NCBI RefSeq assembly: GCF_003334315.1
Contig: NZ_QOWR01000013.1
Direction: 5' to 3' (one strand)
Length of the DNA: 64,000 nt
Source: Escherichia coli
GTDB lineage: Bacteria; Pseudomonadota; Gammaproteobacteria; Enterobacterales; Enterobacteriaceae
Shown: positions 30,737 to 31,094 of the stretch, one piece after another
Layout of the letters: every line of letters begins with the position of its first letter
Position numbering within the stretch: position 1 is the first letter of the stretch
Notes under the pieces: generated by a model
Databases searched by the model: none
What the model saw: only the letters and a program-made list of their open reading frames with translations
Told to the model about the DNA's origin: nothing
Position numbers and translations under genes: made by a program

Positions 30737-30903
30737 TGTTCTCTTCTTCAGGTTAAAAAATAAGGCGCAACGAAGATAACAAACCGCCGCGTTTAATGAA
30801 ATGAGCAGCCTCTCCCTGACGCAAATTTTGCACAAAAAATAGGCTTTAGTGATTTGTTTTTGTTCAAAATCATGCCAAATCCGTGATCGGGGTAAAAAAA
30901 AGG

Positions 30904-30931
30904 TTGCATGAAAACGCGAGCGGAGTATAGT
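30904..30931 (+). promoter_or_regulatory. Sigma70-type promoter for the initiator tRNA gene (TTGCAT -35, 16-bp spacer, TATAGT -10)
   Basis: Hexamers read directly about 14 bp upstream of the mature tRNA 5' end. Confidence 0.7.
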
Positions 30932-30944
30932 GCGCATCCACGGA

Positions 30945-31021
30945 CGCGGGGTGGAGCAGCCTGGTAGCTCGTCGGGCTCATAACCCGAAGGTCGTCGGTT
31001 CAAATCCGGCCCCCGCAACCA
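30945..31021 (+). tRNA. metZ: Initiator tRNA-fMet (anticodon CAU), single copy
   Basis: CGCGGGGTGGAGCAGCCTGGTAGCTCGTCGGGCTCATAACCCGAAGGTCGTCGGTTCAAATCCGGCCCCCGCAACCA; initiator features (C1 with no pair to A72, three G-C pairs in the anticodon stem), encoded CCA. Confidence 0.97.
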
Positions 31022-31028
31022 ATTATTG

Positions 31029-31051
31029 AACACCCTAACGGGTGTTTTTTT
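31029..31051 (+). terminator. Rho-independent terminator of the tRNA gene
   Basis: Hairpin ACACCCTAACGGGTGT followed by T7. Confidence 0.8.
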
Positions 31052-31094
31052 GTTTCTGGTCTCCCATAAAAAAGCGCCATTCAGCGCCTTTTTA

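Follow-up and report, generated by a model that had tools for sequence, protein, structure and literature searches.

One initiator tRNA gene in place of three at the metZWV locus of an Escherichia coli record: assembly under-count or recent contraction

Between mltA and amiC, Escherichia coli K-12 MG1655 carries three tandem genes for the initiator tRNA (metZ, metW and metV), while the 64-kb stretch of E. coli DNA analysed here (the window) has a single one at the same place. Does this one copy belong to the lineage, was it left by a recent loss in the bacterium, or did it arise when the genome was assembled? The initial annotation had read exactly one tRNA-fMet between mltA and amiC and had given three for K-12, and it was right on both counts. 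ARAGORN, Rfam and probe searches agree on one gene, a tRNA-Met(CAT) that is the sole tRNA in the window and scores 61.4 bits against the Rfam tRNA model. A 25-nt probe from the 3' part of the tRNA, with up to three mismatches allowed, found no second copy or fragment in the 64 kb and matched this gene only, and the K-12 inter-gene spacer, searched for with 29 nt of its sequence, gave zero matches, that is, no spacer remnant in the window. The names of the flanking genes rest on tblastn and on the annotation of records whose flanks are nearly the same. All coordinates, including those of four small RNA genes found at full length, are collected in Table 1. In the tcdA-mltA intergenic region we also observed an Rfam match to the small RNA ES036 (CssrF) on the minus strand (29475-29517), with 46.5 bits against a gathering score of 37.6.

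Table 1: Coordinates of the initiator tRNA unit, its flanking genes and the small RNA genes in the window.
Feature	Position	Strand	Basis
CsrB sRNA gene, full length	7714-8073	-	
GcvB sRNA gene, full length	26254-26459	+	
OmrA/OmrB sRNA genes, full length (first of two)	59441-59528	-	
OmrA/OmrB sRNA genes, full length (second of two)	59643-59724	-	
mltA (murein transglycosylase A), left flank	29639-30736	-	100% protein identity to annotated mltA
A-tract, putatively UP-element-like, just upstream of -35	30894-30901	+	read from sequence
-35 hexamer TTGCAT, metZ-type promoter	30904-30909	+	sequence, conservation, identity to K-12
-10 hexamer TATAGT	30926-30931	+	sequence, conservation
GCGC discriminator, G+C-rich	30932-30935	+	directly after -10 hexamer
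Initiator tRNA gene, tRNA-fMet1 type (metZ/W/V sequence), CCA encoded	30945-31021	+	ARAGORN, Rfam, K-12 comparison
Intrinsic-terminator-like hairpin GAACACCC-TAAC-GGGTGTTT and T-run	31028-31057	+	scan, identity to K-12 after metV
amiC (N-acetylmuramoyl-L-alanine amidase), right flank	31095-32348	-	annotation transfer, tblastn

The tRNA has the anticodon CAU (cat at position 35 according to ARAGORN) and acceptor ends reading CGCGGGG...CCCCGCA-ACCA, which leave position 1:72 unpaired (C1 x A72); the Rfam alignment likewise flags the first acceptor pair as non-canonical. Its anticodon stem (UCGGG-CUCAUAA-CCCGA) contains three G-C pairs in a row (G29-C41, G30-C40 and G31-C39), a feature of initiator tRNA as defined in PMC3017606, and A11-U24 and G46 are present in both the sequence and the Rfam alignment. 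All 77 nucleotides are identical to K-12 metZ, metW and metV. The identity to metY is 76/77, and as the only difference is G46 in the window against A46 in metY, the gene belongs to the tRNA-fMet1 type. Judged by its identity to a characterised tRNA it should be formylated by Fmt and used in initiation. K-12 metY (tRNA-fMet2) also encodes an initiator tRNA, but it is the first gene of the metY-rimP-nusA-infB operon, stands in another promoter context and lies outside the window.

The promoter TTGCAT-16-TATAGT that had been assigned to the gene sits where it was placed, with 16 nt between the hexamers and a leader of about 5-9 nt after the discriminator, and a transcription start is predicted for the unit. 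It is strongly conserved in Enterobacterales, even though a consensus scan gave no promoter here, because TTGCAT agrees with TTGACA at only three of six positions. In an alignment of about 95 Enterobacterales loci over the 75 nt that precede the first tRNA, the A-rich run before the -35 hexamer, the -10 region GAGTATAGTGCGC and GAGTATAGT followed by GCGC are kept. TTGCA(T/A) is nearly invariant between species, and the 16-nt spacer varies in sequence but is constant in length. The footprint that these elements leave across species appears clear and is that of a promoter whose discriminator is rich in G+C, and the promoter-down mutations known for metZWV (Kapoor et al.) map in and beside the -10 box (PMC3017606). 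The terminator claimed for the gene was recovered by a scan as a hairpin of eight pairs (31028-31047), four of them G-C, with a loop of four and the T-run TTTTTGTTTCT; about one such site is expected by chance in the stretch scanned, and what supports this one is where it lies and that it is identical to K-12. The transcription unit looks complete, with a promoter and terminator that are probably functional.

In both intergenic regions the locus is identical to that of K-12. From mltA to the tRNA (208 nt) there are zero differences from the sequence upstream of metZ, and from the tRNA to amiC (73 nt) none from that downstream of metV. In MG1655 the three copies (63.5 min) are separated by 33-nt spacers, ATTAAAATTTGATGAAGTAAAGCAGTACGGTGA between metZ and metW and ATCAAATTTGATGAAGTAAAAGCAGTACGGTGA between metW and metV, both of which are missing from the window. 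The window therefore corresponds to the locus of K-12 with exactly two units of 110 nt (a tRNA and a 33-nt spacer each; 220 nt in all) taken out and the ends joined seamlessly at a junction somewhere inside the identical 77-nt repeat. Site, intergenic regions, tRNA with its G46, promoter and terminator are those of metZWV, which differs from the window in having three tandem genes instead of one. Over about 50 kb the window differs from K-12 at 343 sites. Of the suggestion in the initial annotation that the source is not K-12 or has contracted the array, the first part consequently stands, and a contraction in the strain itself is not secured. In one MG1655 record (NZ_CP010441) recD is annotated as a pseudogene with an internal stop.

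In order to place the single copy within the species, 5426 complete E. coli genomes were surveyed. A direct BLAST search with the locus is unfit for copy counts, since overlapping pieces are joined inconsistently, and flank-only and tRNA-deleted queries were used instead. Each 400-nt census query combined a block from mltA with a block from amiC, which the search joins only if they are at most 700 nt apart, so that shifting the blocks sets the cut-off for the array length. By this measure 109 genomes were joined at a cut-off of one copy or fewer, 226 at two, 3460 at three and 3479 at four. Among the 3479 uninterrupted loci three copies are thus the rule (3234 genomes, 93.0%), two copies occur in 117 (3.4%), one copy in 109 (3.1%) and four copies in 19 (0.5%). 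The calibration is borne out by the listed rows, in which the spans agree with the annotated tRNA counts. A second query, composed of upstream sequence, tRNA, W-V spacer and tRNA start, found no match of at least 80% cover in 231 of the 5426 genomes, which is a species-wide upper bound for single-copy arrays.

In about 1933-1947 of the 5426 genomes mltA and amiC are far apart because of a large insert. Very long arrays as the cause in these roughly 1940 unjoined genomes were ruled out by UTI89, where three tRNA copies and then a type VI secretion island lie between the flanks. The type VI cluster of UTI89 (tssB, tssC, tssK and others) begins about 640 nt past metV, its genes lying at 4646-8726 of the extracted stretch right after the third tRNA-fMet copy, and it is absent from the window. 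Two further records deviate in other ways. In NZ_CM183444.1 (BHUCD02) the flanks are 458 nt apart in a match of three pieces, which is no whole number of 110-nt units, and this is an odd array or a small insert. In NZ_CM136786.1 (8GC) a three-copy array (span 8297) has a first spacer that is perfectly of the W-V type, so the spacer order can be rearranged too. The second initiator locus, rimP-metY-argG, lies outside the window and is intact in 5419 of the 5426 genomes; the other seven lack a match of at least 80% to it, as for example IR53017, where only tRNA-sized matches are left.

For the close relatives we searched with 8 kb of the window flanks from which the tRNA had been removed, the span of the match giving the array length. 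The 60 nearest relatives, whose flanks are about 100.0% identical, comprise 56 with three copies, three with two and one with a single copy (GF124.3). The possibility left by the initial annotation that the lineage itself has one copy is contradicted by these 56. No complete RefSeq genome is identical to the window over 50 kb, the closest being 9-15 SNPs away. When SNPs were compared over 50 kb with K-12 as the root, the derived SNPs 8284 and 34659 proved common to the window, AHM9C68I (three copies) and RCAD0514 (two copies). The single-copy records S30 and GF124.3 group together on three other derived SNPs in a small clade, and the window stands outside of it. Between the window and a three-copy relative there are no length differences other than the array, and beyond it only SNPs.

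The same comparison yielded several observations on the surrounding sequence. Five SNPs (10528, 11029, 18141, 35410 and 38121) set the window apart from all five close relatives compared; K-12 has the other base at four of these sites and agrees with the window at 35410. SNP 18141 leads to FucP Y117H. This allele is frequent in E. coli lineages further away and may reflect a small import by recombination into the ppnN-fucP region. As a lineage marker Y117H was discarded, as it is common in distant lineages (98.9-99.6% identical), including 13E0725 with three copies. In YSP8-1, YZ22PE68 and YZ22PE67, at the place corresponding to about 17200-19100 of the window, a cluster with a regulator of the LacI family, an FGGY kinase and an ABC transporter for sugar stands in place of fucP between fucA and fucI, and in YSP8-1 two IS1 copies further break this cluster. 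In RCAD0514 both mltA and thyA are frameshifted, a sign of an error-prone assembly.

Beyond E. coli a tandem array at this site is conserved in the Enterobacterales. When one genome of each species was scanned, 106 stretches turned up with this exact tRNA in tandem, and nearly all of them lie between homologues of mltA and amiC; the mltA-amiC array is present in about 95 Enterobacterales species, mostly with two or three copies. Among the scorable Enterobacterales loci 56 have three copies and 34 have two. E. albertii and Salmonella arizonae carry two copies, Citrobacter two to three, Enterobacter, Klebsiella and Serratia three, and Tatumella four. Taken together, the outgroup arrays, the three-copy relatives and the SNP grouping show a recent and independent loss from a three-copy ancestor, and the single copy is a two-unit loss confined to this record rather than a trait of its lineage.

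Was this loss made in the cell or in the assembly? Both would join the flanks seamlessly, and the sequence alone does not tell them apart; we therefore used as controls lineages in which the true state is known or constrained. Among the 60 single-copy records listed, at least 38 come from about nine sequencing projects, with clusters of nine GF* records (chicken-meat isolates), six WP*-ESBL records, five from CP0672xx-3xx and four to six TUM* records, although the strains are diverse in size, orientation and flank identity. The derivatives of K-12 are discordant as well. J53, ME8067, C3026 and MG1655p appear with one copy and DH5a, C600 and MT102 with two, while other assemblies of MG1655, C600, DH5alpha and NEB 5-alpha have three. 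Of 60 records sampled from the K-12 haplotype two have a single copy, which is close to the rate in the species as a whole. The O104:H4/55989 group comprises 18 records whose flanks are identical; 14 of these have three copies, among them C227-11, FWSEC0009, FDA-ARGOS records and the NIST reference strain, while three records of one 2012 project have one, one and two copies and HUSEC2011 has two. As 2011C-3493, C227-11, FWSEC0009 and further records are all assigned by name to one outbreak clone of 2011, isolates of a single clone disagree. Also YZ22PE67 (two copies) and YZ22PE68 (one copy), from the same project, show 0 mismatches in 49.7 kb besides the array. The project clustering and the discordance within K-12, O104:H4 and this clonal pair are most simply technical.

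On balance we lean towards an under-count or collapse in the assembly as the source of the single copy. The window represents an ordinary E. coli metZWV initiator-tRNA locus with one repeat unit in place of three, the transcription unit being composed of a probable sigma-70 promoter (A-tract, TTGCAT, 16 nt, TATAGT, GCGC), a short leader, tRNA-fMet1 with its CCA, and a hairpin with T-run. Two 110-nt units would have been lost when the assembly under-counted a short tandem repeat, and not in the bacterium. Such a collapse resembles what is seen here in the loss of whole units, the seamless junction, the position at the tips of the tree, a distribution that follows the sequencing project and the disagreement between assemblies of one clone; it differs in that for this window it is deduced from the pattern in other records. 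One particular form of it, the skipping of a loop in a de Bruijn graph, would keep the Z-W spacer only and was rejected, as about 41 records keep the W-V spacer.

A real and recent contraction, by unequal homologous recombination or replication slippage between the 77-nt repeats in the strain or its immediate ancestors, is a serious competitor to which we give somewhat less credence. Deletion between short tandem or direct repeats is frequent in E. coli, and the seamless join is what recombination predicts. Unequal recombination at either repeat pair also predicts two forms of two-copy array, and both one-unit deletion types do occur, some records retaining the Z-W spacer and the 41 or so mentioned above the W-V spacer. 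Related species range from two to four copies, and the placement at tree tips is plausible here too, as purifying selection would likewise keep real variants there. S30 and GF124.3 come from different projects, share their three derived SNPs and are both single-copy, and the clonal sets CX04-21 and BY63/68, each from a single project, have two copies throughout; these patterns fit a heritable contraction. It also weighs against an under-count that, SNPs aside, the array is the sole length difference between the window and its three-copy relative. A loss would moreover leave a back-up gene, almost certainly present given how rarely metY is disturbed. Its consequences are known from K-12, where the level of tRNA-fMet follows the gene copy number and cells without metZWV grow more slowly, are sensitive to cold and initiate with tRNAs other than the initiator (PMC3017606). 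Few tRNA deletions clearly impair growth, and that of the metZWV unit is one of them (PMC11480407). Both sources agree with the statement of the initial annotation that initiator tRNA dosage affects translation initiation. According to an account in PMC9981150 of Samhita 2014, loss of some copies is beneficial in poor media. Against a contraction in the cell speak the clustering of single-copy records by project, the disagreement between assemblies of the same laboratory strains and of the O104:H4 clone, and the share of 93% three-copy arrays among relatives with near-identical flanks. In the samples examined no clade is uniformly reduced save S30/GF124.3 and the same-project clonal sets.

Changes of copy number in tandem tRNA or rRNA arrays would be the closest parallel to such a contraction, as they shift the dosage of translation components through repeat recombination. 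tRNA gene duplications in Pseudomonas fluorescens SBW25 (PMC10954465) and amplification of initiator tRNA genes in Salmonella (Nilsson et al. 2006, as cited in PMC7949028) are examples, but there large duplications are involved, in contrast to the loss of two 110-nt units here, whose origin in vivo we regard as possible and somewhat doubtful. A bolder version holds that the single copy is real and adaptive. Natural lineages would repeatedly shed metZWV units (at a standing frequency of about 2-4%) and so reduce the dosage of initiator tRNA in slow-growth or nutrient-poor niches, the array would act as a fast dosage dial for initiation that recombination can reverse, and the window would be a variant of this kind; this we think improbable.

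It is very improbable that the missing copies moved or are offset by extra tRNA-fMet genes elsewhere in the source genome. In some genomes the tRNA does match at up to 8-9 places, but the 64-kb window has no second copy and the single-copy record ETEC4069 has just two matching places, the locus and one other. That one copy is the ancestral and stable state of this lineage and the K-12 array an expansion is the weakest reading and practically untenable: it has nothing in its favour beyond the 109 single-copy records and is contradicted by the outgroups, with arrays of two to four copies at the site in E. albertii, Salmonella, Citrobacter, Enterobacter, Klebsiella, Serratia, Yersinia and others, by the same two distinct spacers recurring across E. 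coli phylogroups, by the grouping of the window with three-copy relatives, and by the implausibility of rebuilding two identical spacers from one copy.

In summary, the locus is known and its variant state is of a known kind, and the single copy in this record may not reflect the organism. A useful by-product is the census, together with evidence that counts below three at this locus are often unreliable. About 4% of the complete E. coli records give fewer than three genes here, and the pattern suggests that many of these counts in complete genomes are assembly under-counts. tRNA gene counts based on assemblies should therefore not be taken as biology without a check of the reads, and the 297-nt array could serve as a simple sentinel of tandem-repeat accuracy in assemblies. 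In K-12 a lower supply of initiator tRNA means slow growth in rich medium, less start-site fidelity and, when extreme, cold sensitivity. If the contraction were true, the strain would have two initiator tRNA genes (the gene in the window and metY) instead of the usual four and about half the tRNA-fMet, and slightly slower growth in rich medium, a lower fidelity of initiation and possibly an advantage in poor medium would be expected.
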